NCBI GenBank assembly: GCA_964523765.1
Contig: CAZFZX010000005.1
Coordinates: forward strand, 329 to 64,328
From: an uncultured Enterobacteriaceae bacterium
GTDB taxonomy: Bacteria > Pseudomonadota > Gammaproteobacteria > Ga0077536
Direction of reading: 5' to 3'
Length of the DNA stretch: 64,000 nt
Shown: piece after piece, positions 8,717 through 41,904 of the stretch
Numbering within the stretch: position 1 is the stretch's first letter
How the letters are laid out: each line of letters starts with the position of its first letter
The notes under the pieces: model-generated
Seen by the model: only the letters and a program-made list of their open reading frames with translations
Told to the model about the DNA's origin: nothing
Databases searched by the model: none
Program-made: the position numbers and the translations under genes

Positions 8717-10645
8717 ATGGGCATCCTGGTAAATATCGATAACGGCGGCACGTTTACCGATGTCTGCATCAGTGACGGCGACCGGATCGTATATGCAAAA
8801 TCGACCACGACTGCGCACGACTTGACGCAATGTTTTGTCGACGTACTGACCCGCGGTTCGCGGGAACTCTACGGGACAGAAGACCTCGGCCGATTGATCC
8901 GCGATACCGATTGCTTGCGCTATTCGACGACCGCCGGAACCAATGCGGTCATTGAGCACAAGGGCACCCCGGTGGCGGTCCTTGTCGAAGCCGGCGAAGA
9001 GGACGCGCTCTACGGCGCCAAAGATGCCCTAAACGATAATCAATTGTGGCAGGCGATGGTGCCGTATCGACCGGCCGGGATCACGGTAACGAGCGGTGGC
9101 GGCATCGACGGCGAAGAATTGACCAAGATCGTCAATGCGTTGTTGTCTGAAGGTGCGTTGCGTTTGATCGTGGCGTTGCGCTCGAAGGAAGCCGAGCAAA
9201 ACGTCAAGGCGGAATTGCTCGAACGTTATCCGCGGCACTTGCTCGGCGCGATACCCTTTCTGGTGTCCTTTGAACTGGTAGAGGATGCCGACGACGCGCG
9301 GCGCACGGTCACCGCGGTCGTCAATTCCTATTTACACCCCGGCATGGAACACTTTCTGTATGGCGCCGAGACGATCTGCAAGGATCACCACCTGCACCGA
9401 CCGCTTTTGATCTACCGCAACGACGGCGACTCCGCCCGCGTTGCTAAGACGACGGCGATCAAGACCTGGGGATCGGGGCCGCGCGGCGGGCTCGAAGGCG
9501 CGGTGGCGTATGCGCGGCTGTATGGGGATGCGTCCGTTTTGGCCATGGATATCGGCGGCACGACGACCGACCTGTCGCTGGTTCTCGACAAAGCCGTGCA
9601 GATGCGGCCATACGGCGCGGTCGGTGACGTTCGTACTTCGCTCGCGCTGCCGGACCTGCACAGTTTTGGGCTCGGTGGCAGTTCCGTCGTGACGGTCGAG
9701 GGCGGTACGTTCCGGATCGGACCGGAAAGCGTCGGCGCCTCGCCCGGTCCCGCGTGTTTCGCCCGCGGCGGTACCGACGCGACCTTGACCGACGCATTAT
9801 TGGTTTGCGGCGTGATCGATGCGAATGCATACCTCGGCGGCGAAATGAAACTCGACGTCGCTCGCGCCGAGCAGGCCCTGTTGAGCGCGATCGGCGAACC
9901 CCTGGGTATGGATGCAGCCGCCGCCGCTCTCGCGACGGTTCGCGCTTTCGAGAAAGCGTCCGGGGAAAACCTGGCGGCGGCCGTGCGCAATGCTGGCCGG
10001 GAACCTGGCGAGACCTGCCTCGTCGCCTACGGCGGCGGCGGTCCGATGATCGTAACCGGGATTGCCGAAGCCGCGGGCATAACACGGATCATCATTCCAC
10101 GTTTGGCCTCGGTATTCAGCGCCTTCGGTATCGGTTTCAGCCACCTGGCGCATGCCTATCAGGCCCGGCTCGATGGTGCGGCGCCGAAAACCGTCGAGGC
10201 CGAGCTCCGCGCCCGCGCCGAACGCGACATGTATGGCGAAGGCGTCGCGCCCGAAGACTGTCGCTACGAGTCGGGTCTATGGGGCGCAAAGGGCGAGAAC
10301 GTGATCGAAGCACCGCTGTCCGAGGCTGAGGAATTCTCCGCTAATGTCGATGATGCGCGAGTATCCGTGAAGGCGACTTTCGAGTTGCCGGCCTCCACGC
10401 TCGTCGGCGACGACGGGAAGAGCGGGAAAGCCGCGCAGGTGTCCGGCAGCACCGACGTGCTCCTTGGCGGCGAGACGGCGACGGAGGTTCGGACTTACGA
10501 TGACGCCGACCTCCGATCGGGGCAGACGATTGAGGGTCCGGGACTCATCCGCGGCGCCTATCTCACCTGTCTCATCGGCGCCGGCTGGGGCTTGAGAGTT
10601 ACGAGTAACTTAGACCTCGTCATTGAGGCAGACCGACATGACTGA
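8717..10645 (+). CDS. hydantoinase/oxoprolinase A-type (HyuA) subunit, paralogue 1 (alpha-prime-like)
   Basis: 642 aa. N-terminal ASKHA nucleotide motif NIDNGGTFTDV and second motif LAMDIGGTTTD. HyuA-family layout. Confidence 0.85.
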   Translation: MGILVNIDNGGTFTDVCISDGDRIVYAKSTTTAHDLTQCFVDVLTRGSRELYGTEDLGRLIRDTDCLRYSTTAGTNAVIEHKGTPVAVLVEAGEEDALYGAKDALNDNQLWQAMVPYRPAGITVTSGGGIDGEELTKIVNALLSEGALRLIVALRSKEAEQNVKAELLERYPRHLLGAIPFLVSFELVEDADDARRTVTAVVNSYLHPGMEHFLYGAETICKDHHLHRPLLIYRNDGDSARVAKTTAIKTWGSGPRGGLEGAVAYARLYGDASVLAMDIGGTTTDLSLVLDKAVQMRPYGAVGDVRTSLALPDLHSFGLGGSSVVTVEGGTFRIGPESVGASPGPACFARGGTDATLTDALLVCGVIDANAYLGGEMKLDVARAEQALLSAIGEPLGMDAAAAALATVRAFEKASGENLAAAVRNAGREPGETCLVAYGGGGPMIVTGIAEAAGITRIIIPRLASVFSAFGIGFSHLAHAYQARLDGAAPKTVEAELRARAERDMYGEGVAPEDCRYESGLWGAKGENVIEAPLSEAEEFSANVDDARVSVKATFELPASTLVGDDGKSGKAAQVSGSTDVLLGGETATEVRTYDDADLRSGQTIEGPGLIRGAYLTCLIGAGWGLRVTSNLDLVIEADRHD

Positions 10646-11009
10646 ACAAAGAATCGCGATCACCGAGTACCTCGAAATCGATCTGGCGAGCGAACGCTGG
10701 CACTGCCGCCGCTGCGGCTACGACATCGCGGACGCTCACTCGCCGTACAAGGAAGGCCTGTTGGTCTACGAGCGCGATCCGCGTGAGATACACGATTCGA
10801 TCATCGATGATCAGAAATACGAGTTCACTTATGCGCCGGATCCGGATTGGTGTCGGATCATCGAGTTCTATTGCCCGGGCTGCGGCACTATGGTGGAAAA
10901 TGAATACGTGCCGCCGGGACTGCCGTTGACAAACGATCTCGAACTCGATCTCGACAGCCTCAAGGAGCGCCACGCCGAAGCCAAAGGAGCCGCCGATGCG
11001 TCGAGTTAG
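10638..11009 (+). CDS. acetone/acetophenone carboxylase gamma-like Zn-ribbon subunit
   Basis: 123 aa from the ATG, which overlaps the upstream stop by 8 nt. Cys pairs WHCRRCGY and EFYCPGCGTMVENE match the AcxC-type pattern as recalled from memory. Confidence 0.8.
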   Translation: MTEQRIAITEYLEIDLASERWHCRRCGYDIADAHSPYKEGLLVYERDPREIHDSIIDDQKYEFTYAPDPDWCRIIEFYCPGCGTMVENEYVPPGLPLTNDLELDLDSLKERHAEAKGAADASS

Positions 11010-13125
11010 CGTAGATATCGGCGGGACGTTTACGGATTGCTTTCTGGCGTTCGACGGAAAGTACATCGAATCCAAGTCGCTCACGACGCATCACAATCTG
11101 GCGTCCGGCTTCATGGAAGCGTTGAATAAAGCGTGTGCGGAAATCGAATTGGAACTCGACGAAGTATTGAAGTCCGTAGACGCAGTACGCTATGGCACGA
11201 CCTTGGGTACGAATGCGTTGATCCAGCGCAATGGTCCGCGTGTCGGAGTTCTCACGACGGCGGGCTTCGAATCGTCCGTGCCGCTGATGCGCGCGAGGGG
11301 CTACGGCGACGGGCTCGACTTCGCTGATCAGACGAACCTGCCCGGCGCCGATCGGCCCGTCCCCTTGGTGCCGCCGCAGTTGATCGTCGGCATCGAGGAA
11401 CGCATCGATTACAAAGGCGGCGCTCTGCTCGATGTCGACGAACAGAACGTGCGTGAGCAAATCCGCCACCTCGTCGATATGGGTGCACAGGCCTTCGTCG
11501 TGTCACTGGTCAACTCGGTGGTCAACCCCGAACACGAAAAAGAGGTCGAACGGATCATTCTGTCCGAATACCCCACCCACGTGCTCGGAGCCATACCGAT
11601 CGTGCTCTCGCACCGCGTCGCCGGGCGCAAAGCCGAATACTCGCGCACCATGTCCGCCGTCCTCGACGCCTATCTGCATGATCAGATGTACCACGGTATG
11701 TCTTCGCTCGAAGTCGTTCTGCGCCAGAACGGTTACGCGCGTCCGATGCTGCTCGTGCACAACACCTCGGGCATGGCGCAGATGAATTCGACCCACGCGT
11801 TGCAGACCATCCATTCGGGGCCGGTCGCCGGGCTCGAAGCGACGGATTATCTGTCGAAGCAATTCGCGGAGCCGAACGTCATCGCGACCGATATGGGCGG
11901 GACGAGTTTCGACATTGGTCTTGTGACCGCCGACGGCGTCAAGTTCTACGACTTCAACCCCGTCATCGATCGCTGGCTCGTCAGCACGCCGATGACCTAC
12001 CTGCACACGCTGGGCGCGGGTGGCGGCTCGATTGCACGCTACGATCGGCTGTGGGAGGCGGTCGAGGTGGGGCCCGAAAGCGCCGGCTCCGATCCGGGAC
12101 CGGCATGCTATGGCCGCGGCGGCAAAATGCCGACGACAACCGACGCCAATTTGGTGCTCGGTTACCTCGATCCCGACAACTACGCCGGCGGCACGATCAA
12201 AGTGAGTATGCGCCGCGCCGAGCGCGCCATCGAAGAACACATCGGTAAAGCGACCGGCTTGTCGCTCGTGGATGCGGCGAAGGCGATCAAACGCAAGGTC
12301 GACGCCAACATGGCGAGTGCGATTTTCAAGGAGGTCGCGGTCAAGGGCTATAATCCGAAGAACTTCGTGATCCTGAGCTATGGCGGTGGCGGACCGATCC
12401 ACGCTTGCGGTTACGCTTCGAAGATCGGTATCTCGCGGATCCTCATACCGCCATTCAGCTCGGTTTTCTCGGCGCTGGGTGCCGGCAACATGGACCAGTT
12501 GCACATCCACGAAAAATCACTGTATCTCATGCTTTACGATGCGACTCGGCGTCACGTGCTCGACGACTACACCGTCGTCAACGAAACGATCGAGGAGCTC
12601 GAGGAACGCGGGCGCGAGGATCTCATCCGTCAGGGCGTCGCGGTCGAGGACATCAAGACGCGGGTCGAACTCGACATGCGTTACGGTAACCAACTTGCCC
12701 AGATCGGTATTGCGAGCCCCGTCAACCGAATGGAATCGCCGCACGACGTGATCAAGCTACTCGACATCTTCAGCGAAAACTACGCGCAGCGTTTCGGTGA
12801 GGGCTCGCAGGCCCCGGAGGCCGGCGTGCGCATCAATGTCATACGCGTCGTCGCCTACATCGAGCACGAGCGCTTGAAACTAGAGCGATCGAATAAGGAA
12901 GTCGATGCGAAACCGATCGCGCGTACCGAGCGGGAGTGTCACTACCCGGATCTCGAAGCTCCGTTGGCGACGCCGGTGTTCGATCACGATGCGGTCGCGG
13001 ACGGGATGAAGGTGGCCGGCCCGGCGTTGATCGAAACGCCGCGAACGACGTATCTGGTGGAACCGGGATGGACGCTCACGATGGGGCGCATGGGCTCGGC
13101 GATGATGGTGAAAGACGATGCGTAG
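10996..13125 (+). CDS. hydantoinase/oxoprolinase A-type (HyuA) subunit, paralogue 2 (acetone carboxylase beta / Apc-alpha-like)
   Basis: 709 aa with motifs VDIGGTFTDC and ATDMGGTSFD. The start overlaps the gamma gene by 14 nt. Confidence 0.9.
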   Translation: MRRVSVDIGGTFTDCFLAFDGKYIESKSLTTHHNLASGFMEALNKACAEIELELDEVLKSVDAVRYGTTLGTNALIQRNGPRVGVLTTAGFESSVPLMRARGYGDGLDFADQTNLPGADRPVPLVPPQLIVGIEERIDYKGGALLDVDEQNVREQIRHLVDMGAQAFVVSLVNSVVNPEHEKEVERIILSEYPTHVLGAIPIVLSHRVAGRKAEYSRTMSAVLDAYLHDQMYHGMSSLEVVLRQNGYARPMLLVHNTSGMAQMNSTHALQTIHSGPVAGLEATDYLSKQFAEPNVIATDMGGTSFDIGLVTADGVKFYDFNPVIDRWLVSTPMTYLHTLGAGGGSIARYDRLWEAVEVGPESAGSDPGPACYGRGGKMPTTTDANLVLGYLDPDNYAGGTIKVSMRRAERAIEEHIGKATGLSLVDAAKAIKRKVDANMASAIFKEVAVKGYNPKNFVILSYGGGGPIHACGYASKIGISRILIPPFSSVFSALGAGNMDQLHIHEKSLYLMLYDATRRHVLDDYTVVNETIEELEERGREDLIRQGVAVEDIKTRVELDMRYGNQLAQIGIASPVNRMESPHDVIKLLDIFSENYAQRFGEGSQAPEAGVRINVIRVVAYIEHERLKLERSNKEVDAKPIARTERECHYPDLEAPLATPVFDHDAVADGMKVAGPALIETPRTTYLVEPGWTLTMGRMGSAMMVKDDA

Positions 13126-13201
13126 GTCGGGTTAGGCGCGACAGTGCCGTAACCCGACAGTGAGTGGAATCGTCGGGTTACGCTGCACTAACCCGACCTA
13201 C
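13122..13201. repeat. REP-like palindromic element, family B copy 1
   Basis: gtaggtcgggttaggcgc..gccgtaacccgac ... gtcgggttacgc..ctaacccgacctac. This is a pair of inverted GTAGGTYGGGTTA units. It contains the TAG stop of the upstream gene. Confidence 0.7.
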
Positions 13202-13243
13202 GAGAGCTTAGTTAGTTAGTTAGGTATTTGAGAGGGTACAGCC

Positions 13244-15472
13244 ATGGGCGGTGACCAGGAAAAATCTGTCATAGAAAAGTTCCTCGAGGATAACGTGCTT
13301 TTCCTGGGACCCGATCCCGAGATCATGCGCGACCATTCCGTCGTCAAGGCCTCTGCGCGGGAAGAAGCCGCGCTCAAGCGCTTCGACGACCCCGACGAGA
13401 TCAATCTCATCCGCCACAAACTGCAGACGGCCTGCAATGAATCCTTCGATATGGTCGAGCAGATGGGGGCGGCGCCCGGCGCGAAGTGGGGCGATCTCAT
13501 CTCCGGTGTTTGGACCATGCACGGCGATTTGGCTATGGCCAGCATGGGCGGCGTGCTGATCTTCTCGGTGCTGACGCAACATCCCGTGAAATTCATTCTG
13601 AAGTATTGGAAAGACGAACCGACCGTCGGGCTCAAGGAAGGCGACGTTTTCATGCATAACGACGCGCGCTACGGCAACATCCATAACACCGACCAGAGCC
13701 TCGTCATTCCAGTTTTCCACGAGGGCGAACTCGTGTGCTTCACCGGGGCGATCGTGCACGAGGGCGAAAACGGCGCCACCGAGCCGGGCGGTATGCCGTC
13801 GGCGGCGGAATCGCCCTACGACGAAGGGCTTAAGATGTCGCCGCTGCTCGTTGGTGAGAATTACGAATTCCGGCGCGACATCATGACCTTTCTCCAGAAC
13901 TCGGTACGCGAACCCAAGCTGCAGCTCGAGGGAATGAAGGCTAAGCTGTTTGCGGCGATACGGATGAAGGCCAGGGTCGACGACGCGATTGCCGAGTATG
14001 GCATCGACGCGGTGGTTGCGACGCTGCGCAAAACGCTGACGGATACCGAGCTTGAAGTACGGAGAAAACTTCGCTCCTGGCCGAACGGAAAGGTGCGTAC
14101 GAACGTTTTTGCCGACGGCACCTTGCGCGAGAATTGCCTGATCCGGATCCGCTGCGAGTTGCACAAGCGCGATGACGAATTGGTGATCGACTTCCGCGGT
14201 TCGTCACCGGAATTCCTCAACCGCGCGAATAACACGATACTGGCTTCGGCCAAGGGCATGCTGGCACAGGAGTTTCTGAGTTTCGTGTGGCCCGACCTGC
14301 CGCGCAACCAGGCGGTGTTTGCGCCGATGACTGTGATAACCGACGAACGGTCCACGCTCAACTGTTCCCCCGAGGCGCCCAACGCCCAGAGCATGATGAC
14401 GTTCTTTCCGAGCTTCACCGCGGTCCAGATCGGGGTCCCGAAATTTCTCTACAGCGCCGGCGAACGCAGTACCGACATTATCGCCGGCTGGTACAACATG
14501 ATCGTGACGTTCATTTACGGCGGGGTGAACCAGTATGGCGAACTCGTGGGCAACGTGTGCGCCGACCTCAACGGTATGGGTGGCGCCGCTCGCTGGAATC
14601 GCGACGGTGAACATTCGATCGCGCCGATCTTCGCGCCGATGGCCGACATCGGAGAGCAGGAGCTCATCGAAGAAGAAGTCCCGCTGATGAAGCTCGTACC
14701 GAACAAATTGATGCGCGATTCGGAAGGGTTTGGAAAATTTCGCGGCGGTCACGGCTATCAGCAGATTGCGACGATGAAGGAATCGTCGATGTGGGGTTAC
14801 ATGTGTTGTTCGATCGGATCGAAATTCCCGACCACCTACGGCGTTTTTGGCGGTTACGCGCCGGGGTCCTATCCCTTATGTAAAGTAAAAGGCGTCAACG
14901 TTTTTGAAGTCATGGAAGACCGGCGCGATCTGCTGCGGTACTCCATCGAAGAGATCATGAACGAGCGGCCCTTTCCGGGGGCCACCTACACGTCTCACCA
15001 TATGGGTTTGCAATTAGAGTTTGCCGAGCCCGGCGAGTTATACATGATCACGCAGGGTTCTGGCGGCGGTTATGGTGATGTGCTCGAACGCGATCCCGAA
15101 CTCGTGGCGAAGGATTATCTCGATGGTTTGATCTCGATGCGTCCGGTGCAGCAGATCTACCACGTGATCCTCGACGAGAAAACTGGCGCGGTCGACGTCG
15201 AGGCGACTCAGAAAGCGCGTGATGCCGAACGCGAGAAACGCAAAGCACGTGGTAAACCTTACAAAGAATTCGTCAAGCAGTGGCAGACGGACACACCACC
15301 GGCCGATGTTCCGTTCTATGGTTCCTGGGACGACCGGGACACGATCTACATGGGGACGCCCGATAAGACGTGTCCGGCGGACGCGATCGAGCCGGTGATG
15401 ATGCCGGATCCGAAGGACGTTCGTATCGCGCAGCTCGAGTCAGAGTTGGCCTCACTGAAAGGTAGGAGTTAG
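13244..15472 (+). CDS. hydantoinase B/oxoprolinase (HyuB) subunit (acetone carboxylase alpha / Apc-beta-like)
   Basis: 742 aa with HyuB-type layout. A good RBS (gagaggg) precedes the ATG. Confidence 0.9.
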   Translation: MGGDQEKSVIEKFLEDNVLFLGPDPEIMRDHSVVKASAREEAALKRFDDPDEINLIRHKLQTACNESFDMVEQMGAAPGAKWGDLISGVWTMHGDLAMASMGGVLIFSVLTQHPVKFILKYWKDEPTVGLKEGDVFMHNDARYGNIHNTDQSLVIPVFHEGELVCFTGAIVHEGENGATEPGGMPSAAESPYDEGLKMSPLLVGENYEFRRDIMTFLQNSVREPKLQLEGMKAKLFAAIRMKARVDDAIAEYGIDAVVATLRKTLTDTELEVRRKLRSWPNGKVRTNVFADGTLRENCLIRIRCELHKRDDELVIDFRGSSPEFLNRANNTILASAKGMLAQEFLSFVWPDLPRNQAVFAPMTVITDERSTLNCSPEAPNAQSMMTFFPSFTAVQIGVPKFLYSAGERSTDIIAGWYNMIVTFIYGGVNQYGELVGNVCADLNGMGGAARWNRDGEHSIAPIFAPMADIGEQELIEEEVPLMKLVPNKLMRDSEGFGKFRGGHGYQQIATMKESSMWGYMCCSIGSKFPTTYGVFGGYAPGSYPLCKVKGVNVFEVMEDRRDLLRYSIEEIMNERPFPGATYTSHHMGLQLEFAEPGELYMITQGSGGGYGDVLERDPELVAKDYLDGLISMRPVQQIYHVILDEKTGAVDVEATQKARDAEREKRKARGKPYKEFVKQWQTDTPPADVPFYGSWDDRDTIYMGTPDKTCPADAIEPVMMPDPKDVRIAQLESELASLKGRS

Positions 15473-15486
15473 CCGGGCGCTGCCTC

Positions 15487-16314
15487 ATGTCAGCCGGGGT
15501 CCTGCGTGCATGGCTGGACGGCGATCGCGATCGCCTGGTCTGGATCGAGTTCGACGAGTATGCGCACCGGGTATTCGCCGGCGATGGCGACGACTGGTTG
15601 TCTGTCGCGAATGCGTTTGTCGGCGGCGTGAGCCAGGCCGCCGGTGTCGTTGTGACCGAAGTGCTGTCGGTCGACGCACTGGCGCCTTATCTTTTGAGCC
15701 TCGAGCGTAGTACCGATTCGCCGGCTGCGGCGGTGCAGGCCATGCTGCAACTCGAAGCGCCGCGGCAGTTTGTTTTCGAGGTGGTCGATGCCCTTGCTCA
15801 TCGTTTCGCTACGCGTGCCGATCTCGTGCTCAAGGTACCGTCCCCCGCGGGACTGCTGCGAGCGGCCGGGTCCGGACCCGAGCCGTCCTTCGACGATCTC
15901 GACGACGTCGGGATCGGACTTTCCGACGTGCTGCGGGAATTATCCACCAAGCCGTTTGCGGGCGTTCTCATCACGAGTCCCGAGTTCCCGGCCGCCGACG
16001 AAGCGGAAGCGATGGAGTCGGTTGCGAGCGCCGCTCGTCATTACGGATGGTGCGTCGCGCTGAGCCTCGACAACGTGACCACCGTACCCGATGAGCTGCC
16101 GGAACTCGATCTGGACCTGTTGTTGTTACCGTCCGTGGGGATCGCGGATTTAACGGCTGTCTCGGCGCCCCTCGGCGGTGGCCTCGGGCAGGACTATTGG
16201 CGGACGGACAATGTGGCCTCGATCCCGGAAGGCCGCCGCCTGTTGTATGGCTCGATACCGGCGGACGCACAACCCGAACTCGTGATCCAGCGGATCGCCG
16301 CTGCCCTGGGGTAG
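15487..16314 (+). CDS. hypothetical protein, possible accessory subunit of the carboxylase-like cluster
   Basis: 275-aa ORF, 14 nt after the HyuB gene on the same strand. It shows an alternating beta/alpha pattern (VWIEFDE, VVVTEVL, LVLKVPSP, GVLITSPE, WCVALSLD, LLLLPS). No family recognised. Confidence 0.55.
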   Translation: MSAGVLRAWLDGDRDRLVWIEFDEYAHRVFAGDGDDWLSVANAFVGGVSQAAGVVVTEVLSVDALAPYLLSLERSTDSPAAAVQAMLQLEAPRQFVFEVVDALAHRFATRADLVLKVPSPAGLLRAAGSGPEPSFDDLDDVGIGLSDVLRELSTKPFAGVLITSPEFPAADEAEAMESVASAARHYGWCVALSLDNVTTVPDELPELDLDLLLLPSVGIADLTAVSAPLGGGLGQDYWRTDNVASIPEGRRLLYGSIPADAQPELVIQRIAAALG

Positions 16315-16352: not shown

Positions 16353-16493
16353 ACTGGATGCCGGGGCTAGGACCGCTCCTGCGGTCCCTGCGCACTTCCG
16401 CCATCCCTGGCGGTCGTAAATCCGGCATGACGGTAATGACGTTCATCGGGCAATCCCGGATTAGAAAATGATCCACATTTCGGAACAGTTAAG
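16353..16493. repeat. family A repeat copy 2 (partial, one terminal repeat)
   Basis: The gatgccgg...ccggcatgac hairpin has an extra module in its loop (gctaggaccgctcctgcggtcc...cacttccgccatc). It ends in atttcggaacagttaag, which contains the TAA stop of the TetR gene. Confidence 0.6.
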
Positions 16494-17118
16494 CGCCCGC
16501 GCCGGGGTGGACGAGCGCGTGCAAGAGCATTCGATAATATTCCTCGAAGGCTTCCGCTACCGTGAGGTCTGTGCTGCGGTAAAAATCGGGTTCGCGCAAG
16601 CGGTTCAGCCCAGCGAATACCATCTCCGCAACCAGTACCGAATTGATGTCCCTGAATATGCCGGTTTCGATCCCGCGCTCGATGAGTACGCGTAACCCAT
16701 CGACCCGCAGCCGGATGTGTTCCTGCCATATACGGCGCGCCGGTTCCCATTTATCGATGTCTGCAATCGCGACCGGGCTCAGGCGCAAAGCCGCGCGTAC
16801 ACCGACCTGCAGGTATTCGAATATCTGCTGCGCAGGATCGTGATCGCAATCCGCGGTGGCGAGCGCCGCGTCGGCGCGCAGCGTTTCGAAGAACATCGTG
16901 ATGACCTGCAATACGAGTTCGTTCTTGGTCGATGCGAGTTCGTAAATCGTGCGTTTGGAGCAACCGAGTCGCTGCGCCATCTCCGATACGCTGAGACGCG
17001 CGAACCCGTCCGCCAGGATGATGTCCTGCAAAGTGGCGCGCAGCCGGGTTTCGCGCTGCGACCCGGCGCGGTTCGCGTCTACGGCGGCCGTTGGTTCGGC
17101 TGCGGCGGGATCGTTCAT
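16489..17118 (-). CDS. TetR/AcrR-family transcriptional regulator
   Basis: 209 aa. N-terminal TetR HTH: FARLSVSEMAQRLGCSKRTIYELASTKNELV. Confidence 0.85.
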   Translation of the reverse strand: MNDPAAAEPTAAVDANRAGSQRETRLRATLQDIILADGFARLSVSEMAQRLGCSKRTIYELASTKNELVLQVITMFFETLRADAALATADCDHDPAQQIFEYLQVGVRAALRLSPVAIADIDKWEPARRIWQEHIRLRVDGLRVLIERGIETGIFRDINSVLVAEMVFAGLNRLREPDFYRSTDLTVAEAFEEYYRMLLHALVHPGAGA

Positions 17119-17590: not shown

Positions 17591-20005
17591 ATGAAAGGTA
17601 TGCGCTATCGCTTAGCCGAACTGACATTGAAGCATCGCGTGTTTTCGGCGTTGCTACTCTTTGGTGCCACGGTATTTTTCGCTGTGGGACTGAAAAACGT
17701 CGAGCTGAAGACCATCTTCTCCGATCTGTTTCCCAAGACCCATCCTTTCGTCGAGACGTATACGGCGCACCCGAACTTCGGTAATCCCTTGACCGTCACC
17801 ATGATGGTCAAGCGCACGGACGGTCAGGACATTTACAATTTCGAAACGATTTCCAAAGTGTGGCGGATGACGCGCGAGATCGATCTCACGCCCGGCGTCG
17901 ACCACGATCAGATCCTCTCGATCACCACGGAGAAAGCGCGTTACGCCGAAGCGACGCCGTTCGGGGTCGATCTGCGCCCGTTGATGGACGACAAGGCGCC
18001 GGAGTCCCCCGAGGCTATCGCCGACTTTAAAAAGCGCGTCGACAAGGCGCCGAACGTCAGGACGTTTCTAATTTCCGGGGACGAGACCGCGACGATCGTC
18101 CAGGCGACCTTCATCGAGCAGAAGCTCGAATACGGCGTGGTGTTCGATTTTGTCCAGGAACTCGCCGAGAACGAACGCGACGCCGAACACGAGATTTATG
18201 TGGCCGGGCAGCCGGTCCTCACCGGGTGGGTGTATTTTTACGAGCACCAGATGCTCGGTATTTTTGCCATGACGGCGGCCGCCTTGCTGCTCTCACTCAT
18301 TATCTACATGCAGAATATTCCCGGTGTCGTGACGCCGCTCGCGGTCAGTATCGTCGCCGCGATTTGGGGTTTCGGCTTCGTCGGCTGGATTGGCGATCCC
18401 ATCGAGCCGCTGATCATGGTCGTACCTTTGCTGTTGGTGGCGCGTTCGTTCAGCCACTGTGTGCAGTTCATCGAGCGCTATTATGAGATCTATCATCAGA
18501 TCGGGGACCGCCGGAAGGCGGCCGAACTCGCGCTCGGCGTCATGATGGCGCCGGGGGTGCTCGGAATTGTGACCGACTCGGCGGGTTTGTTCCTGATCGC
18601 GGTGGCGCCGATCCCGGTGATGGAGCGCTTCGCGCTCTTCTGCGGCTTTTGGGCCCTGATTCTCGTGCCGGCGATCCTGTTTTTGTCGCCGATTATGTTG
18701 TCCTGGTTTCCGGCGCCGAAAAATGTCGCCGTGCTGATCGGTAAATCCGAGGAACGCACCTGGCACGACAGCATTATCGATCTGCTGCAGGTGATCGGGC
18801 GCGTGAGCCACGGCGCGGCGGCACGCGTCACTACTGTCATCGTGATTATCCTGTTCGTCGTCGGTCTGTCGCTCGCGATCCAGATCAAAGTCGGCAACCC
18901 GACCGAGGGCAGTAACCTGCTGTTCGAGGATTCCGACTTCAATACCGCGGTGCGCGCGATCAACTCTCATTTCCCCGGCCTGATGACGTTGGAGATCGTG
19001 TTCGAGGCCAAGGAGGAGCAGTCAGAAGAGGGGCGCGTGTTGCGCGCGAACGAAACGATACAGACGATGTGGGCGCTGCAGCGCCGCCTCGAAGCGGCGG
19101 ACAATCCGCCCGAGGCGACGCTGTCCTTCGCCGATTATCTGCCCGAAGCAAACCGTTTGTTCAGCGGCGGCAATCCGAAATGGGGGCCGATCGATACCAA
19201 CGACGATGCCTCGAACGCGGCGGTCGGCGCCTTGCTGCTCGGGTCGAGCACCAAGAACTACAGTCACGTCAGTGACTTTCAGCTGGAAAACGGTACGGTC
19301 TCCCTCTGGTATAAGGACAATAAACAGGACACGGTCGATGTCGCGCTGGAGCAAACGCGAGAGGCCCTCGACGCGATCGGTATCGACAAGCGTCGCTTCC
19401 GTGTCCGCCTTGGCACCGGCGCGATCGCCCTGCAGCAATCGGTCAACGACACCGTGGACACCTATCAGTGGATCATCCTCGGTCTCCTGAACTTGGTGAT
19501 CCTGTTCACCTGCAGCTTCGCCTACCGCTCAGTAGCGGCCGGTATTCTGCTTCTCATCCCCGTGAATTTTTCCAACATGCTGTTGGGCGCCGTGATGGTG
19601 TTGATGGGCATCGGCCTCGACGTGAACAGCCTCCCGATCGCGGCTATCGGCATCGGCGTCGGTATCGACTACGGTATCTACCTCCTGAGCCGGATCTGCG
19701 AGGAATTCAGGGACAATCAGCACCACGGCGAGGCCATCCAGGCGGCGGTGACGACCACGGGGAAGGCGATCTTCTTTACTGCGACCATCGTGCTCATCGG
19801 GATCCTGCCCTGGTATTTTCTGTCGGAGTTGAAGTTTCTTGCCGATATGGGTCTACTGCTGGTGATGATCATGTTGATCAATATGATCATCGCCCTGGTC
19901 GTGCTGCCGCTACTGGTCTATCTGTTCAAGCCGGGCTTCGTCGAGCGCGAACATTTGATCATCTCGGAGAACACCGACATCTCCGAACTGCTCGATACCG
20001 AATAA
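17591..20005 (+). CDS. RND-superfamily MMPL/HpnN-like transporter (12 TM, two periplasmic loops)
   Basis: 804 aa with two blocks of about six hydrophobic helices separated by large soluble loops. This matches the COG1033-type layout. Confidence 0.85.
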   Translation: MKGMRYRLAELTLKHRVFSALLLFGATVFFAVGLKNVELKTIFSDLFPKTHPFVETYTAHPNFGNPLTVTMMVKRTDGQDIYNFETISKVWRMTREIDLTPGVDHDQILSITTEKARYAEATPFGVDLRPLMDDKAPESPEAIADFKKRVDKAPNVRTFLISGDETATIVQATFIEQKLEYGVVFDFVQELAENERDAEHEIYVAGQPVLTGWVYFYEHQMLGIFAMTAAALLLSLIIYMQNIPGVVTPLAVSIVAAIWGFGFVGWIGDPIEPLIMVVPLLLVARSFSHCVQFIERYYEIYHQIGDRRKAAELALGVMMAPGVLGIVTDSAGLFLIAVAPIPVMERFALFCGFWALILVPAILFLSPIMLSWFPAPKNVAVLIGKSEERTWHDSIIDLLQVIGRVSHGAAARVTTVIVIILFVVGLSLAIQIKVGNPTEGSNLLFEDSDFNTAVRAINSHFPGLMTLEIVFEAKEEQSEEGRVLRANETIQTMWALQRRLEAADNPPEATLSFADYLPEANRLFSGGNPKWGPIDTNDDASNAAVGALLLGSSTKNYSHVSDFQLENGTVSLWYKDNKQDTVDVALEQTREALDAIGIDKRRFRVRLGTGAIALQQSVNDTVDTYQWIILGLLNLVILFTCSFAYRSVAAGILLLIPVNFSNMLLGAVMVLMGIGLDVNSLPIAAIGIGVGIDYGIYLLSRICEEFRDNQHHGEAIQAAVTTTGKAIFFTATIVLIGILPWYFLSELKFLADMGLLLVMIMLINMIIALVVLPLLVYLFKPGFVEREHLIISENTDISELLDTE

Positions 20006-20032
20006 ACGAAATTGAACGATAGGACCAAAATA

Positions 20033-21067
20033 ATGACTAGCTTTGTTAACCGACTCGCGCGCGGGCGCATCGGAGGCGCACACGTGCGTGCCCTTCTCGT
20101 CTTGGCGATCGCGACGTTGCCGTTTGCGGCCGCCGCGGAGGATGCGATTAGCGAGGCGATCGAAATCGTCCGCACCGGGATCGCTCACGACGCGCTCTAC
20201 GCGCTCGACATGAACGGTGAGAAAGGGGTTGCCATCGGTAACTTCGGGCTGATCCTCGAAACGGCAGACAGCGGCGCCACTTGGAACGTGACGGAGCCGG
20301 TGACCGAACAGGCGCTGCTCGGCATTGCAACCGACGGGGAGCGCCAGATCATCGTGGGTCAGGCAGCGACCGTGTTAACGCGCGTCGGCGGCGGGCAATG
20401 GGAGCAACTAGAAAACGACCTCAGCCAGCGCCTGCTGAACGTGGATTTCGACGACAATAGCGGTCTCGTTGTCGCCGTCGGCGAGTTCGGCGCGATTCTG
20501 CGCTCGCGCGACCACGGTAAAACCTGGGAATCGATTACGATCGACTGGATGCAGTACAACGACGAGGGCTACGAGCCCCACTTATACGACGTCGTTGTCA
20601 AAGACGAAAACACCGTGGTCGTGACGGGCGAGTTCGGACTGATCCTGTGGTCCGAGGATGGCGGCGGCACGTTTACGGCTCGGCACCAGGGGGACGAGTC
20701 GATCTTCGACATCCATCTCGACGCCGACGGTACCGGGAAGGGCTGGGCGGTGGGCCAGGACGGCGAAGTGCTGCGCAGCCAGGATGCCGGTCAGACCTGG
20801 GAAAACATCGATGCCGGTTCGGTCGCCAATCTGCTTGGGGTCTGGTCCGGTCAAGGCGAGGTCGTCATTATCGGGATCCGCGAATTACTGCGATCCAGCG
20901 ACGACGGTGAGACTTGGCGCAAGGCCGATGATATCAAGATCGTCCGTACCTGGTATCAGGGAATCGATGCCGGCGTCGCCGAGATCGGAGGCGACAGCGG
21001 ATTCCTCCGTACCCAGATCGTGTATATCGCCGGCTACAACGCCACTATATCCCGGATCTTGGAATAA
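20033..21067 (+). CDS. Ycf48-like / BNR (Asp-box) beta-propeller protein, secreted
   Basis: Signal peptide followed by five Asp-boxes: TADSGATW, SRDHGKTW, SEDGGGTF, SQDAGQTW, SSDDGETW. ATG at 20033 has RBS aggacc; the ORF track starts at TTG 20012. Confidence 0.8.
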   Translation: MTSFVNRLARGRIGGAHVRALLVLAIATLPFAAAAEDAISEAIEIVRTGIAHDALYALDMNGEKGVAIGNFGLILETADSGATWNVTEPVTEQALLGIATDGERQIIVGQAATVLTRVGGGQWEQLENDLSQRLLNVDFDDNSGLVVAVGEFGAILRSRDHGKTWESITIDWMQYNDEGYEPHLYDVVVKDENTVVVTGEFGLILWSEDGGGTFTARHQGDESIFDIHLDADGTGKGWAVGQDGEVLRSQDAGQTWENIDAGSVANLLGVWSGQGEVVIIGIRELLRSSDDGETWRKADDIKIVRTWYQGIDAGVAEIGGDSGFLRTQIVYIAGYNATISRILE

Positions 21068-21308: not shown

Positions 21309-23558
21309 GTGAACAGAACTAAGCTCGCAACCATTTTCACCGCGGTGGGAATGCTGGCAATCTTTTTGGTACCGAACATCGCACTGGCCATCGACTGGAG
21401 CTTTACCGGCTTCGTCCGCCAGGAAATTGCGGTATCGATCACGAACGACAAGAACCCCAACAACGCGTCGACGAATGCGTATACGGAAGGTGCGACACCG
21501 GCGACGACGTCGAACCCGGCCGTATCCGGCCAAGCGCCGGCGGCGGTTGTGTTCAACCCGGGCGGCGCATTTTTCGCGGGCCTGCCGGCGGAAGAACGAG
21601 GCGTCTTCTCTTTCAGCCCCTCGACCTGCCCCTTCTTCGAAGGTACGGACCCCCTCGGCGCTGGCGGCTCTGAGACCCCGCTAGGGGCGCTTAACGCGGC
21701 GCTTATCGCCGCCGGCGGCGATCCCTGTGTACCGAATCTGGGCGGTGACGGCATCGCCGAAGACAAGACCATCAACATGTTCAACTCGCGCGCCGAGTTG
21801 GACATCCAGGCGAACAACATTACGGACAACATCAACGCCTTCATGAAGCTGCGTGTGTACTTCAACGGTACCAGCAACTTCAACGACGAGATCGTCGGCG
21901 ATCATTTCCAGGAAAACTTTTACGGCAATCGCGGCAACTTGCTCGAAGTGCAGTCCAACGACATCATGGTCGATATCCCTTCGCTGTATTTCGACTACAA
22001 CAAGGGCCCGCTCTGGATTCGGCTCGGTCAGCAGCAGATCGCCTGGGGCGAAGCGCTGTTCTTCCGCGTCTTTGACGTTGCCAACGGTCTGGATCTCCGC
22101 CGCCACTTTTTCCTCGACGTGGCCGCCGAAGAGTATTCCGACGAGCGGATCGCGAGCCCGGGAGTGCGCGTCAGCTACACGTTCAAGAACGGCATCGAAC
22201 TCGATGGCTTCGTGCAGATGTTCAGCCCGACCCTCCTGCCCGGCATGAACACGACCTACAATGTCGTCACCTCGGGTTTCTCCTGGGATAACCGGATCGA
22301 ACTCGACGAGGCGAAGAACACGCTCAACTACGGTATGCGTGCCATCTGGCCCGTCAACGACCAGTTGACCATGCAGGTGATGGCGGTCAACCGGCGCAAC
22401 CCGGACGGCGTAACGCGCTGGCACGATGCGCCGCGGACTCTGGATAACGGTCGGCCGAATCCGTTTTGTGCGGGTCGCACCTTAGCCCTCACGACCGCCG
22501 CGCTGGCTGGTGGCCCGGATTTCTCGGCGCTCCTTGGCTCGCCATTCGGCGGTACGATCGATCTGAGCGCGGCGGAAATCGGGATGCTGACGGGAGCTAC
22601 CCCGCTCAGCCGGACGAAATACACCGAGAACGGCTGCGGCTCCTTCTTCGCCCCCGACGCACTCGGCGGCAGCTCCGGCCATAACTGGTACAACCTTGCG
22701 CCGCAGGCCCGGATCGACTCCGCCGCCGCGGTGGCCGCGAGCATCAACCTGACGCAGATATCCAGCCTCGAGTCCCGCGAGGGCTTCGGTCTCCCGGATG
22801 AATACGGCCGGGCGAGCCGCGGGATCACGCTTGGGGTCGATGATGCCGTCACACGCTACGGTTCGATCAAAGCTGCCGCGCACAACACGCTCGATGCGTT
22901 CTATACCGGTTTCGGTTCGCTGCGCGGTTGGATCACGCGCGAGTTCAAGCGCGAATCGATCTTCGGTTTTGGCGGAACCTATATTTTCAACACCGAGGAC
23001 CAAGAGAGCTTTTTCAATCAGCTCATCCTCCGTGGCGAAATGAGTTACACGCCGGACAAGCGCTTCACGGCGATGGACTTGGGGGGTGATTGGATCGAAG
23101 AGGACGAGTTCACCGCCTCGGTTGTGGCGGAGAAATGGCATCGTTGGACGGACAAGGTGCCGGGAATGTACATGGTCGCGGAGTGGATGATCAAAACCGA
23201 GTCCGACCTTTACGGCCGCCACCTGAGTGGTTCGGAGAATACGCCAGGCTTGGGTCTGAATGCCGACGGCACCTATCAGGACGACGGGATCCCCGACGGT
23301 TCGGATTACTTCAACGCCGTGGTGTTTGCGTTCCAGCAACCGTTCCCGAACCTGGTGTGGCGCCTCGATTCGTCGTTCCTGCTCGACCTCGAGGGCGGCT
23401 GGTTCTTGCAAACCGGCGTCCGGTATCGGCCGAGCGCACACTTCCAGTTCGACATCTATGCGAACATTGCGCAGGACGGCGGCGACAAGAACGACGATAT
23501 CATTGAGACCACGGACTGGGCCGACGAAGTCTTCGTCCGCGCGACGTACTTCTTCTAA
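21309..23558 (+). CDS. DUF1302-family outer-membrane beta-barrel protein
   Basis: 749 aa. Signal peptide, hallmark LWIRLGQQQIAWGEALFFRVFDVANGLD, and an aromatic C-terminus (VRATYFF) typical of OM barrels. Confidence 0.75.
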   Translation: MNRTKLATIFTAVGMLAIFLVPNIALAIDWSFTGFVRQEIAVSITNDKNPNNASTNAYTEGATPATTSNPAVSGQAPAAVVFNPGGAFFAGLPAEERGVFSFSPSTCPFFEGTDPLGAGGSETPLGALNAALIAAGGDPCVPNLGGDGIAEDKTINMFNSRAELDIQANNITDNINAFMKLRVYFNGTSNFNDEIVGDHFQENFYGNRGNLLEVQSNDIMVDIPSLYFDYNKGPLWIRLGQQQIAWGEALFFRVFDVANGLDLRRHFFLDVAAEEYSDERIASPGVRVSYTFKNGIELDGFVQMFSPTLLPGMNTTYNVVTSGFSWDNRIELDEAKNTLNYGMRAIWPVNDQLTMQVMAVNRRNPDGVTRWHDAPRTLDNGRPNPFCAGRTLALTTAALAGGPDFSALLGSPFGGTIDLSAAEIGMLTGATPLSRTKYTENGCGSFFAPDALGGSSGHNWYNLAPQARIDSAAAVAASINLTQISSLESREGFGLPDEYGRASRGITLGVDDAVTRYGSIKAAAHNTLDAFYTGFGSLRGWITREFKRESIFGFGGTYIFNTEDQESFFNQLILRGEMSYTPDKRFTAMDLGGDWIEEDEFTASVVAEKWHRWTDKVPGMYMVAEWMIKTESDLYGRHLSGSENTPGLGLNADGTYQDDGIPDGSDYFNAVVFAFQQPFPNLVWRLDSSFLLDLEGGWFLQTGVRYRPSAHFQFDIYANIAQDGGDKNDDIIETTDWADEVFVRATYFF

Positions 23559-23903: not shown

Positions 23904-23990
23904 GGGGCGGGGTCGGTCGGCGCGGCGTTTGCAGACAGCGATCGTGCTAATGTACTGCTAGCTATTCTCGTAGAGCCAGAGGGCCATTTG

Positions 23991-24650
23991 ATGGATGACA
24001 CAGCTATGAACCAACTCGGCGGAGACATGTGGGCCGCCGCGCGCTCGCTGCTCGAATTGGGCGGGCCCGTGGTGGCCGTTCTCATGGTGATCTCCGTGTT
24101 CGGGTTCGCCATTGCAATCTACAAATTCTTCCAGTTTTCCACCTTGAGCCCCGGCCGCTTCAAAGCGCTCCATACCGCGCTCGGCAAATGGCAGGCAAGC
24201 CCGGAGGAGTGTTTGCAGCGCCTCGAAAAGTCTCGGCTCGGCCTCGGCCCGATCATGAAATTCGGCCTCGACCATCGCGATGAGCCCGACACCGAGGAAT
24301 TGCGCGAAGAACTCGCCCGCCAGGCGACCAATTTCCTCCAACCCTATGGGCGCTACCTGCGGCCCCTGGAACTCATCTACTATCTCGCACCGGTGTTGGG
24401 CCTGCTCGGGACGGTGCTCGGGATGATCGAGGCCTTCCGCGGCCTCGAGGCGAGCTCCGGTCTGGACAAGGATTCGACCGCGCTCGCCGGCGGCATCTGG
24501 GAGGCATTGCTGACGACCGCGGTCGGTCTTTCGATCGCCATTCCTTTTACCGTGGTGCACGCGTGGCTCGAGACCCGCCTCGATGCCGCGACGGCGCAGG
24601 TATCCGATCTGCTCACGCGCGTCATGACCATCAACGTTGGGTCGAAGTAG
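23991..24650 (+). CDS. exbB: MotA/TolQ/ExbB-family proton channel
   Basis: About 219 aa with three TM helices. Signature APVLGLLGTVLGMIEAF and GGIWEALLTTAVGLSIAIPF. Confidence 0.85.
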   Translation: MDDTAMNQLGGDMWAAARSLLELGGPVVAVLMVISVFGFAIAIYKFFQFSTLSPGRFKALHTALGKWQASPEECLQRLEKSRLGLGPIMKFGLDHRDEPDTEELREELARQATNFLQPYGRYLRPLELIYYLAPVLGLLGTVLGMIEAFRGLEASSGLDKDSTALAGGIWEALLTTAVGLSIAIPFTVVHAWLETRLDAATAQVSDLLTRVMTINVGSK

Positions 24651-24657
24651 CGAATTG

Positions 24658-24775
24658 CGTGTTCGGAAAAATGCTTCACTTCTCTAGCTGTACCAGCGCC
24701 CGTCGTACCGGCGCCCGTCATACCGGGCTCGACCCGGTATCCAGTAAGAAAGCCCGCCGCAGGCGGACATTGCTT
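24658..24775. repeat. family A repeat copy 4 (partial)
   Basis: gtgttcggaaaaatgcttcac ... gtcataccgggctcgacccggtatccagtaagaaagcccgccgcaggcggacattg. It sits between exbB and exbD. Confidence 0.6.
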
Positions 24776-24789
24776 GGCTGCACCGCGCG

Positions 24790-25194
24790 ATGATCGCAAT
24801 CCAGCGCCGACGACGTTCGTCCAGGCTGTCGCTGACGCCGTTGATCGACGTCGTGTTCATTTTGTTGATCTTCTTTATGTTGGAGAGCGATTTTTTAAGG
24901 CCCTACGTCATGGAACTCGCGCAAGCCGGCGGCGGCGCCCGTGAAGCAGGCGCGAAGACGACGCCGATCTCGATCGAATTGCACAGCGACCGGACGATAT
25001 GGATCAACAAGGCGTCTTTTCCGATGCAGAACGTGGAGCATGCCATCGTTGAACTCAATCCCGCGGAGGATTCACCCGTGGTCGTCGCGGCCGATCCGGG
25101 CGTCCCGCTGCAGCGCGCGGTGAGCATCATCGATATCCTGCAACGCCGCGGACTGACCAACATCGCGCTCACCGAAGCGGAGCGCTTCGATTGA
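24790..25194 (+). CDS. exbD: ExbD/TolR-family protein (canonical TM Asp)
   Basis: 134 aa. TM segment is SLTPLIDVVFILLIFFM, with Asp20 encoded by GAC at 24847-24849. Confidence 0.85.
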   Translation: MIAIQRRRRSSRLSLTPLIDVVFILLIFFMLESDFLRPYVMELAQAGGGAREAGAKTTPISIELHSDRTIWINKASFPMQNVEHAIVELNPAEDSPVVVAADPGVPLQRAVSIIDILQRRGLTNIALTEAERFD

Positions 25195-25213
25195 GGGCAA
25201 AAAATAGAATAGT

Positions 25214-25265
25214 GGGGTCAGACCCCTTTAGTAGCTCATTAATGGGGTCTGACCCCATTTTTTCC
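25214..25265 (+). terminator. terminator-like hairpin built from two inverted GGGGTCAGACCCC units
   Basis: ggggtcagacccc (25214-25226) and ggggtctgacccc (25244-25256) form a 13-bp stem followed by attttttcc. It lies between the two exbD genes. Confidence 0.5.
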
Positions 25266-25273
25266 GTTTTCTT

Positions 25274-25696
25274 ATGTTAGATCCCAAAACGCGAAAATTT
25301 GGTTCGGTCGGCGGCAGGCACGTGAGTCCCTCGCACGAACGGCGTCCCGAAAATGTCGTGCCCATGATCAACATCGTCTTTTTGCTGCTGCTTTACTTCA
25401 TGGTCGCCGGTAATCTGCATATCGACTTGGAGGTGACCCCACCCACTTCCGCGGCCTCGACCCAGCCATCGCCGAACGTGCTCCAGATTGCGATCACGGC
25501 GGCCGGCAAGGTCCAGTACCGCGGCGGCAGCATCGCCATCCCGCAGATTGAACTCGAGCTTAAGAATGATTTCAAAGACCAGGTAGTCCAGCTTTCGGCG
25601 GATGCGCAGACCGATGCGATATTGGTCGCCCAGGCGGTTGCATCCCTGTCCAAGGTCGGCGTCAAGCAGATCACACTGTTGACATTGAAGCACTAG
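25274..25696 (+). CDS. ExbD/TolR-family paralogue with Asn in place of the TM Asp
   Basis: 140 aa. TM segment is VPMINIVFLLLLYFMV. Codon 33 is AAC (25370-25372) where ExbD/TolR normally carry the essential Asp. Confidence 0.8.
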   Translation: MLDPKTRKFGSVGGRHVSPSHERRPENVVPMINIVFLLLLYFMVAGNLHIDLEVTPPTSAASTQPSPNVLQIAITAAGKVQYRGGSIAIPQIELELKNDFKDQVVQLSADAQTDAILVAQAVASLSKVGVKQITLLTLKH

Positions 25697-25937
25697 ATAA
25701 TTGATCCGAAATGCGCTTCACGTTGTTCGTAGGTCCGTCTGCCGTCACCCCGGACTTGTGACCTACAGGGACGTAGGAAATGCGAAAGGATTGCAGGAGC
25801 AATCCTCGCTCCGGGGTCCAGTCAAACAATGTCCGCCCGCGGCGGGCTTTTTCTACTGGATGCCGGATCCGTCACCCCGGACTCGATCCGGGGCCGGCAT
25901 GACGAAAGTGATCGATATTTCGGAACAGTTATCTGAG
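25693..25937. mobile_element. MITE-like element, family A copy 5 (inverted relative to copy 1, with nested insertions)
   Basis: Collinear with the reverse complement of copy 1, plus two extra hairpin modules inserted into existing hairpin loops. The left end ctag contains the TAG stop of exbD2. Confidence 0.75.
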
Positions 25938-25993
25938 CCTAGCGAATCATCAGCCGATTTTCCTCGGGAGAACGCCCAACCCTTGGACGGTAG

Positions 25994-26078
25994 AACCACG
26001 GAGAACACGAAGATCAGTAAATCGAGATCCATTAGAACTATTCATTGAATCTCCGTGTTCTTCGTGTTCTCCGTGGTT
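25994..26078. repeat. long hairpin repeat, family C copy 1
   Basis: Perfect 20-bp arms aaccacggagaacacgaaga / tcttcgtgttctccgtggtt around an AT-rich loop of about 45 nt. Confidence 0.65.
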
Positions 26079-26171
26079 AAATGCATGCGATTATTAGTAA
26101 TTGGCTCGAACCCACCGAAAAGCCCCCGGTGGTGGATGTGACAGGCTCAGGGCTCACGAAGTAAGCGAACT

Positions 26172-29533: not shown

Positions 29534-29576
29534 TAAGTTAGTTCTCGAGCCCGCAATACCCTGTGCAATGGAGATT

Positions 29577-41872: not shown

Positions 41873-41904
41873 GGGGGGAATAGTCCTTTTCGCGAATAGT
41901 CGCG

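Follow-up and report, generated by a model that had tools for sequence, protein, structure and literature searches.

A predicted five-subunit ketone carboxylase operon beside a conserved transport block in an uncultured gammaproteobacterium

The acetophenone carboxylase (Apc) of Aromatoleum aromaticum EbN1 (5L9W, 9FOU; PMC5214803) is built from five types of subunits encoded in the order alpha'-gamma-alpha-beta-epsilon. The same architecture, with its need for epsilon (PMC5214803; PMC13677872), is found in Acr of Rhodococcus aetherivorans, which carboxylates ketones from acetone to 2-hexanone but not acetophenone and whose host grows on acetone (PMC13677872). These two characterized five-subunit ketone carboxylases act on very different substrates, and the architecture, which extends to uncharacterized “heterodecameric” branches from proteobacteria (PMC13677872), was surveyed in the literature in October 2026. 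In the same superfamily, the acetone carboxylase AcxABC (5M45, 5SVB) is encoded by three genes, acxABC, with no second kinase paralogue, no epsilon, and a gamma of ~168 amino acids (aa), while HyuAB, OplAB, and CapAB have two subunits only, no gamma, and a beta of ~580 aa. We analyzed a stretch of 64,000 nucleotides (hereafter the window) from an uncultured Enterobacteriaceae bacterium (assembly GCA_964523765.1, contig CAZFZX010000005.1, positions 329 to 64,328), in which five genes at 8717-16314 very likely encode, judging from their sequences, an ATP-dependent, biotin-independent, five-subunit (alpha alpha' beta gamma epsilon) ketone carboxylase of the Apc/Acr class. This level of confidence covers the enzyme class only; that the substrate is aliphatic and more hydrophobic than acetone is proposed far more tentatively. 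Subunit identities, the epsilon fold, motifs, phylogeny, and synteny were observed, and from these we infer the chemistry and, weakly, the substrate.

Each protein was compared with the PDB sequences, and genes 1-4 found their best matches in the Apc core complex (5L9W), in the apcABCD order. The product of gene 1 matched best chain b of 5L9W, the apcA product (alpha', deposited under the name “alpha subunit”; 6.5e-81), followed by the apcC product (3.8e-63), and that of gene 2 matched Apc gamma (5L9W_C, 1.4e-36) ahead of Acx gamma (1.7e-8), so that this open reading frame (ORF), on whose homology to Apc gamma the earlier note on this DNA had staked its proposal, is indeed a homologue. The best match of gene 3 was the apcC product (alpha, 5L9W_B, 9.6e-162), with Acx beta next (4.6e-90), and that of gene 4 was the apcD product (beta, 5L9W_A, 1.4e-88), with Acx alpha (6e-39) and caprolactamase B (CapB; 1.9e-28) behind it. 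The NCBIfam Apc equivalogs were the best models for all four but scored far below their cut-offs (ApcA 331/1250, ApcB 144/250, ApcC 575/1500, and ApcD 333/1500 bits, that is, 22-57% of the cut-offs); therefore, the core subunits are homologues, not orthologues, of Apc. The signature residues defined in PMC5214803 are largely in place. The PHOSPHATE1, PHOSPHATE2, and ADENOSINE motifs of the ASKHA fold are intact in both HyuA paralogues, reading DNGGTFTD (8-15), DIGGTTTD (278-285), and GASPGP (340-345) in alpha' and DIGGTFTD, DMGGTSFD, and GSDPGP in alpha. Paralogue 1, whose nucleotide-binding residues had been singled out for checking, should hence bind nucleotide. The alpha-specific fingerprint R/KERiDsxG has a near match in alpha (EERIDYKG, with E for R/K at the first position) and was absent when sought in alpha'. 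Gamma combines the CxxC...CxxC (Cys4) pattern with the short Apc-type length, and D84, H147, D150, and H172 of beta align with the metal ligands D65, H123, D126, and H148 of Apc.

The product of gene 5 had no match in Pfam, NCBIfam, or the PDB sequences, and neither phmmer nor a profile of 27 sequences linked it to ApcE in the PDB sequences. Its alignment by hhalign with the ORF at the ApcE position of a canonical Apc-like cluster of the same genome (contig C37) was not significant (E 0.085). Among 5.8 billion proteins searched we found 33 relatives, none of them named, and a profile search of 1.84 billion representatives gave 385, nearly all of 260-300 aa. The AlphaFold2 model computed from the 27-sequence input (pLDDT 94.5, pTM 0.92) has eight beta/alpha units, and its top Foldseek match in the PDB was 9FOU, “acetophenone carboxylase subunit epsilon ApcE” (E 6.4e-9, TM 0.70/0.64), with uroporphyrinogen decarboxylases (URO-D) ranking after it. 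A literature search found no papers citing 9FOU. Epsilon subunits are described as too divergent for pairwise sequence detection (PMC13677872). In all relatives the ORF is the fifth gene. Going by the modeled structure, the fifth ORF is the epsilon subunit, linked to ApcE by fold comparison only, and not an unrelated gene as had been thought. The composition and the apcABCDE gene order thereby agree with the alpha/alpha'/beta/gamma plus epsilon architecture that the earlier note had recognized.

The five ORFs lie on the forward strand at the coordinates given before (Table 1), and both overlaps reported among the first three genes are seen in the sequence: 8 nt between genes 1 and 2, where ATGACTGA at 10638-10645 holds the stop of gene 1 and the start of gene 2, and 14 nt between genes 2 and 3 (gene 3 start at 10996, gene 2 end at 11009). 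The start of gamma is most likely the ATG at 10638, giving 123 aa, the length of many close homologues, rather than the TTG at 10623 (128 aa). Plausible Shine-Dalgarno sequences precede all five start codons. The spacer of 118 bp between genes 3 and 4 carries two copies of a small REP-like (repetitive extragenic palindromic) element, GTCGGGTTA-N8-20-TAACCCGAC, which occurs 3 times in the window against an expectation of none and in 12 exact copies in the genome; the third hairpin in the window, directly after epsilon, probably marks the end of the operon. The set alpha'-gamma-alpha-beta-epsilon occurs in identical order in at least 10 other loci, so the five genes form a conserved unit and not a chance arrangement.

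Table 1. Predicted features of the carboxylase operon and its downstream neighborhood (positions in the window)
Feature	Position	Strand	Basis or remark
alpha' subunit, ApcA-like HyuA paralogue, 642 aa	8717..10645	+	Pfam Hydantoinase_A/Hydant_A_N, PDB match
gamma subunit, ApcB-like Cys4 zinc ribbon, 123 aa	10638..11009	+	Pfam Acetone_carb_G 9.8e-36
alpha subunit, ApcC-like HyuA, 709 aa	10996..13125	+	Pfam Hydantoinase_A/Hydant_A_N, PDB match
beta subunit, ApcD-like HyuB, 742 aa, core and metal-site subunit	13244..15472	+	Pfam Hydantoinase_B
two REP-like palindromic hairpins, alpha-beta spacer	13126..13197	+	repeat count
epsilon subunit, 275 aa, URO-D-like TIM barrel	15487..16314	+	AlphaFold2 model, Foldseek
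REP-like hairpin, immediately 3' of the epsilon stop codon	16315..16347	+	repeat count
TetR-family regulator	16489..17118	-	Pfam TetR_N; convergent with epsilon, divergent from the RND operon
HAE3 RND pump, AmeABCD-like block	17591..20005	+	Pfam, NCBIfam
BNR/Ycf48-like protein, AmeABCD-like block	20012..21067	+	Pfam, NCBIfam
DUF1302 outer-membrane protein, AmeABCD-like block	21309..23558	+	Pfam, NCBIfam
ExbB/ExbD, vWA, and TPR genes, then CobW/COG0523 GTPase (29794-30750)	23988..30750	+	Pfam
DUF1329, AmeB-like periplasmic LolA-like protein	30970..32343	+	Pfam 2.9e-56
SCP-x-type thiolase, candidate beta-ketoacyl-CoA cleaver	32535..33776	-	Pfam Thiolase_C_1

We then placed the beta subunit in a careful IQ-TREE phylogeny comprising the paralogues of the genome, the relatives, named plasmid sequences, and ApcD, AcxA, and CapB from the PDB. 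An Apc-type superclade including the window beta (100/98) is sister to the Acx clade (100/100), and both the gamma-fused type and the plain Hyu types fall outside Apc and Acx, so the grouping with Apc/Acx, away from the oxoprolinase/hydantoinase types, on which the earlier note had relied is borne out. ApcD itself groups (100/100) with the C9 and C37 clusters of the same genome, and the window beta, at 29% identity to ApcD, belongs to a separate clade (100/100) with clusters of Halorientalis marina, Neorhizobium petrolearium, and the Rhodococcus jostii RHA1/BH4 plasmids. The window proteins are 57% (alpha), 57% (beta), 55% (gamma), 39% (alpha'), and 32% (epsilon) identical to those of Neorhizobium; over the branch, beta is 47-57% identical to Rhodococcus/Neorhizobium sequences and alpha 55-57% to the plasmid clusters. 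On these sequence comparisons, the lineage is distinct from Apc proper and close to the Rhodococcus/Neorhizobium five-gene clusters. Its position recalls the branch for which carboxylation of acetone and of C4-C6 ketones was reported in 2026; in the comparison, where plasmid clusters stood for Rhodococcus, it is sister to the RHA1/BH4 and Neorhizobium clusters.

Relative to Apc, the window cluster has the same five subunit types in the same order, the short Cys4 gamma, ASKHA motifs in both kinase-type subunits, the beta metal ligands, and the URO-D-like fold of epsilon. It differs in a beta that is ~58 aa longer (742 vs. about 684 aa), in an epsilon undetectable by sequence, in having no AMP-binding ligase and hence no benzoylacetate-CoA ligase adjoining it, and in its separate sub-lineage, the real Apc-like clusters of the genome being C9 and C37. 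The nearest plasmid clusters (Neorhizobium NZ_CP123001, RHA1 pRHL2) share the architecture and the subunit sizes (~640, 710, 740-775, 125-140, and 270 aa), and their fifth ORFs belong to the same sequence family as epsilon (hidden Markov model [HMM] matches of 7e-68 for Neorhizobium and 1.5e-56 for RHA1). Unlike them, the window cluster has no CoA-transferase, sigma-54, or AcxR-type genes beside it and is accompanied instead by a TetR gene and an AmeABCD-like block. With AcxABC it shares the superfamily, the gamma zinc-ribbon family, the beta-type metal ligands, and probably the type of reaction, although identity is 23% and Acx forms the sister clade. The make-up of HyuAB, OplAB, and CapAB, with two subunits, no gamma, and the shorter beta, does not fit the window cluster.

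By homology to Apc, alpha would phosphorylate the enol form of the ketone and alpha' would phosphorylate bicarbonate to carboxyphosphate. Beta would provide the dimeric core with the conserved Asp/His/Asp/His metal site, gamma would add a structural Cys4 zinc ribbon, and epsilon would act as a detachable TIM barrel needed for the meeting of the two activated substrates. The expected product is a beta-keto acid, which would then undergo CoA activation and cleavage, probably by the SCP-x-type thiolase of the downstream block. In two related loci (L017 and L019) a homologue of this thiolase immediately precedes the five genes, and another (38% identity) stands beside the Halorientalis cluster, the neighbors of which are two AMP-forming ligases and a thiolase/OB-fold pair.

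The window cluster is one of many in its genome, where 4.3 Mb hold 11 gamma-family matches and ~29 HyuA-type loci. Besides the window, Apc-type clusters occur on contigs C9, C37, C65, and C138, making five in all, and Acx-type genes on C129, C153, C24, C6, and C9. The beta subunits of C9 and C37 are 62% and 60% identical to ApcD, and that of C129 is a canonical-looking Acx with 66% identity to AcxA of 5M45. Acetone-type and acetophenone-type enzymes thus appear, from sequence identity, to be present already, and the third type in the window probably serves another ketone. Gene order varies among the paralogous clusters, being gamma-alpha-beta-epsilon-alpha' at C65:7534-15057, while an epsilon-like ORF lies between gamma and alpha at C138:1815-9321; these two candidates were the only other ORFs in the genome matched by the epsilon HMM (1.3e-6 and 0.004, respectively). 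Within the window itself there is a second pair on the reverse strand (37456-41947), a HyuA of 739 aa and a HyuB of 784 aa with a C-terminally fused Acetone_carb_G domain, which in the beta tree is sister to the Apc and Acx group; ORFs of ~770 aa resembling this fused HyuB are found in nearly every genome of the family. Gamma copies numbered 1-14 per genome in 22 of the 24 sampled genomes of the family, with the highest count in relative G021, and were found in none of the 16 genomes that represented other families of the class. The genome also holds ~5 matches to EB_dh, the ethylbenzene dehydrogenase (EBDH) gamma type, on C13, C2, and C4. Such matches suggest hydroxylases that attack alkyl chains independently of oxygen and could provide the carboxylases with ketones. 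On C4, two of the EB_dh matches form a pair, with another DUF1302 gene a few kb away.

To compare the gene context, related loci were retrieved with 12 closer epsilon sequences. In 9 of 10 related loci the carboxylase genes are followed by the AmeABCD-like RND, BNR, and DUF1302 genes (labeled AmeD-, AmeC-, and AmeA-like in the window), and the conserved order reads alpha'-gamma-alpha-beta-epsilon-TetR-RND-BNR-DUF1302-ExbBD-vWA-TPR-CobW, with DUF1329 also in the block. These syntenic loci come from five genera of one uncultured gammaproteobacterial family and from further metagenome-assembled genomes (MAGs). Most of the nine loci have a divergent TetR gene, which keeps its position in L018, L024, L030, L031, and L032, and the ExbB/ExbD-vWA-TPR-CobW part is kept in L024, L030, L031, and L032; the upstream flank varies. 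The transport block survives divergence of epsilon to 37% identity, and in a distant relative (L022/L023) a gene for a group II intron-type reverse transcriptase (11427-12767) sits between epsilon and the RND genes with the block otherwise undisturbed. The four transporter families (DUF1302, LolA-like DUF1329, BNR/COG4447, and HAE3 RND) are those of AmeABCD, a monoterpene-associated RND system of Castellaniella defragrans that is likewise tied to the catabolism of hydrophobic compounds (PMC6394551), and the same families include Pseudomonas genes required on Tween 20 and fatty esters (bioRxiv 10.1101/2020.07.04.188060). Unlike AmeABCD, the window block is split by the ExbB/ExbD/vWA/TPR set and the CobW GTPase and has the carboxylase operon ahead of it. 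Homologues of this GTPase also lie by carboxylase genes outside the block, at L020:10798-11910 (45%) and, in Neorhizobium, at L027:17786-18994 (35%). The gene is thus met in three arrangements, namely within the window block, directly after epsilon (a Burkholderiaceae MAG), and beside rpoN (Neorhizobium), and could serve the carboxylase as a dedicated metallochaperone for its zinc or other metal site.

We found neither an activator nor a promoter of the sigma-54 type adjoining the operon, and no CoA ligase; domain and promoter scans agree with the earlier note that an AcxR-type activator and a benzoylacetate-CoA ligase are missing from its vicinity. The sigma-54 promoter scan gave nothing in the 630-bp upstream region and matches at chance level window-wide, and the sigma-70 scan gave nothing upstream of gene 1; ahead of the RND operon there is a sigma-70-like promoter with 11 of 12 matches at 17320-17348. 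The context had been called non-canonical, which is right with respect to Apc, yet the clade has a context that is conserved and peculiar to it. The 13-mer CGGTTCTGGTTGG has only two copies in the window, at 8469-8481 upstream of gene 1 and, inverted, at 17500-17512 in the TetR-RND spacer (~0.01 chance matches expected). It was rejected as a shared TetR operator, being absent from the matching regions of all relatives; since a footprint search found the -10 region alone conserved, co-regulation of the carboxylase and RND operons has no support. Divergent from the operon on the upstream side, 6224-8086 (reverse strand) encodes a protein of 620 aa in which a c-type cytochrome domain at the N-terminus is combined with a beta-propeller weakly resembling the pyrroloquinoline quinone (PQQ) type (115 bits). 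This protein was considered as a ketone-supplying alcohol dehydrogenase and set aside, as it lies beside the cluster in no relative.

As to the substrate, the earlier note had deduced a bulkier methyl ketone from the architecture. This does not follow: because Acr carboxylates acetone to 2-hexanone and not acetophenone, the five-subunit architecture alone is no sign of a bulky or aromatic ketone. An aliphatic substrate is nevertheless most likely, because the lineage is separate from Apc and next to the Neorhizobium/Rhodococcus clusters. The closer Acx and Apc homologues elsewhere in the genome, together with the fixed TetR/AmeABCD-like block, hint at a ketone more hydrophobic than acetone. 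Taken together, an aliphatic medium- or long-chain or isoprenoid methyl ketone, suggested by context only, is the reading we lean toward, while holding it to be slightly short of probable.

The pocket of alpha was compared at the seven positions proposed to line it in Apc (81, 281, 282, 285, 333, 344, and 345). Apc has L, F, N, P, I, Q, and T (L81, F281, N282, P285, I333, Q344, T345), and the C9 and C37 clusters are Apc-like; the window clade has T, I, H, P, I, Y, and L, and Neorhizobium and Rhodococcus have T, I, H, P, I, H, and L. The window alpha accordingly differs from Apc in 5 of 7 residues, including the loss of Phe281, and is identical to the Neorhizobium/Rhodococcus type in 6 of 7, with Tyr335 in place of His at Apc position 344. 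This near identity favors a simpler possibility, that the enzyme is an Acr-type acetone/butanone carboxylase whose neighboring transporter block has nothing to do with it and was simply retained through descent, which we regard as a real contender though on the unlikely side. In the closest named relative, that of Neorhizobium, the cluster is followed by CoA-transferase A/B genes (an acetoacetate CoA-transferase), rpoN, the CobW-like GTPase, and a sigma-54 activator, in agreement with the acetone-type context described for proteobacterial “heterodecameric” carboxylases (PMC13677872), and the sole characterized five-subunit enzyme other than Apc supports growth of its host on acetone (PMC13677872). 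Against a simple acetone/butanone carboxylase, the genome already has the canonical AcxA homologue, neither this operon nor any of its nine syntenic relatives has a gene for acetoacetate conversion or an AcxR-type activator next to it, and the link to the hydrophobe module outlasts both the divergence of epsilon and the intron insertion.

Several observations weigh against the preferred assignment to a more hydrophobic ketone. For the whole clade, chemistry and substrate are predictions from homology and gene context, and the label “Acr-like” was given by way of homologues on Rhodococcus plasmids and of subunit sizes that match. A pocket that departs from the Neorhizobium/Rhodococcus type by one Tyr/His exchange would suit the same small ketones, too. 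The loci with the transport block are close relatives, with alpha subunits 73-90% identical, and a synteny that they have for the most part inherited does not count as independent evidence; the sole copy outside the family (Burkholderiaceae, L020), which also speaks for the acetone/butanone reading, has no transport block and keeps the CobW gene alone. AmeABCD has been characterized as an efflux/tolerance system and not as an importer (PMC6394551), and neither a CoA ligase nor a CoA transferase that could act on the product adjoins the operon.

A genuine carboxylase of acetophenone or another aryl-alkyl ketone is very unlikely. The apcABCDE order and subunit set, the Apc subunits as best PDB matches, and the EB_dh-type gamma subunits in the genome would suit it, but the equivalog scores at 22-57% of the cut-offs, the low identity to ApcD compared with C9 and C37, the altered pocket, the length of beta, and the missing benzoylacetate-CoA ligase all argue otherwise. 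Least probable of all is that the five genes encode no carboxylase but another ATP-dependent lactamase or hydrolase of the hydantoinase superfamily, or a kinase stopping at a phosphorylated intermediate, for although the large subunits are members of the hydantoinase/oxoprolinase superfamily and only two enzymes with the five-subunit set are characterized, carboxylases are the only enzymes known to have gamma, epsilon, or a second paralogue of the kinase type, HyuA and HyuB being all that the hydrolases consist of (PMC5214803), the beta branches inside the Apc and Acx group far from CapB and the Hyu types, and both ATP sites are intact, as expected for activating two substrates.

The type of enzyme is already known, and the cluster leaves the knowledge of that type unchanged; what deserves attention is that the transporter is a conserved partner, that a COG0523 GTPase recurs beside the clade, and that the paralogues have expanded. 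As the two characterized five-subunit carboxylases differ widely in substrate, each sub-lineage with a conserved context of its own is a lead to a new substrate. A genome that combines closer homologues of canonical Acx and Apc with the window clade is a clean test set for determinants of substrate range, of which the single Tyr/His difference in the pocket is a candidate example. A bolder proposal, which we offer as speculation and judge distinctly unlikely as a whole, is that the clade represents a carboxylase that has been missing for methyl ketones with long or isoprenoid chains, with its own transport apparatus, metal loading by COG0523, and a modular strategy. Anaerobic metabolism of an isoprenoid ketone reportedly has a precedent in work by Rontani et al. 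in 1997. If the proposal were true, the substrates could be, for example, 2-alkanones from oxygen-independent hydroxylation of alkanes or phytol-derived ketones; they would be fed to the enzyme by an AmeABCD-type hydrophobe transport apparatus with Ton-like powering, and a dedicated COG0523 GTPase would supply the metal. The family would then have multiplied its ketone carboxylases, reaching up to 11-14 gamma genes in a genome, alongside hydroxylases of the EBDH type, and would treat alkyl chains by a modular “hydroxylate, oxidise, carboxylate” strategy.

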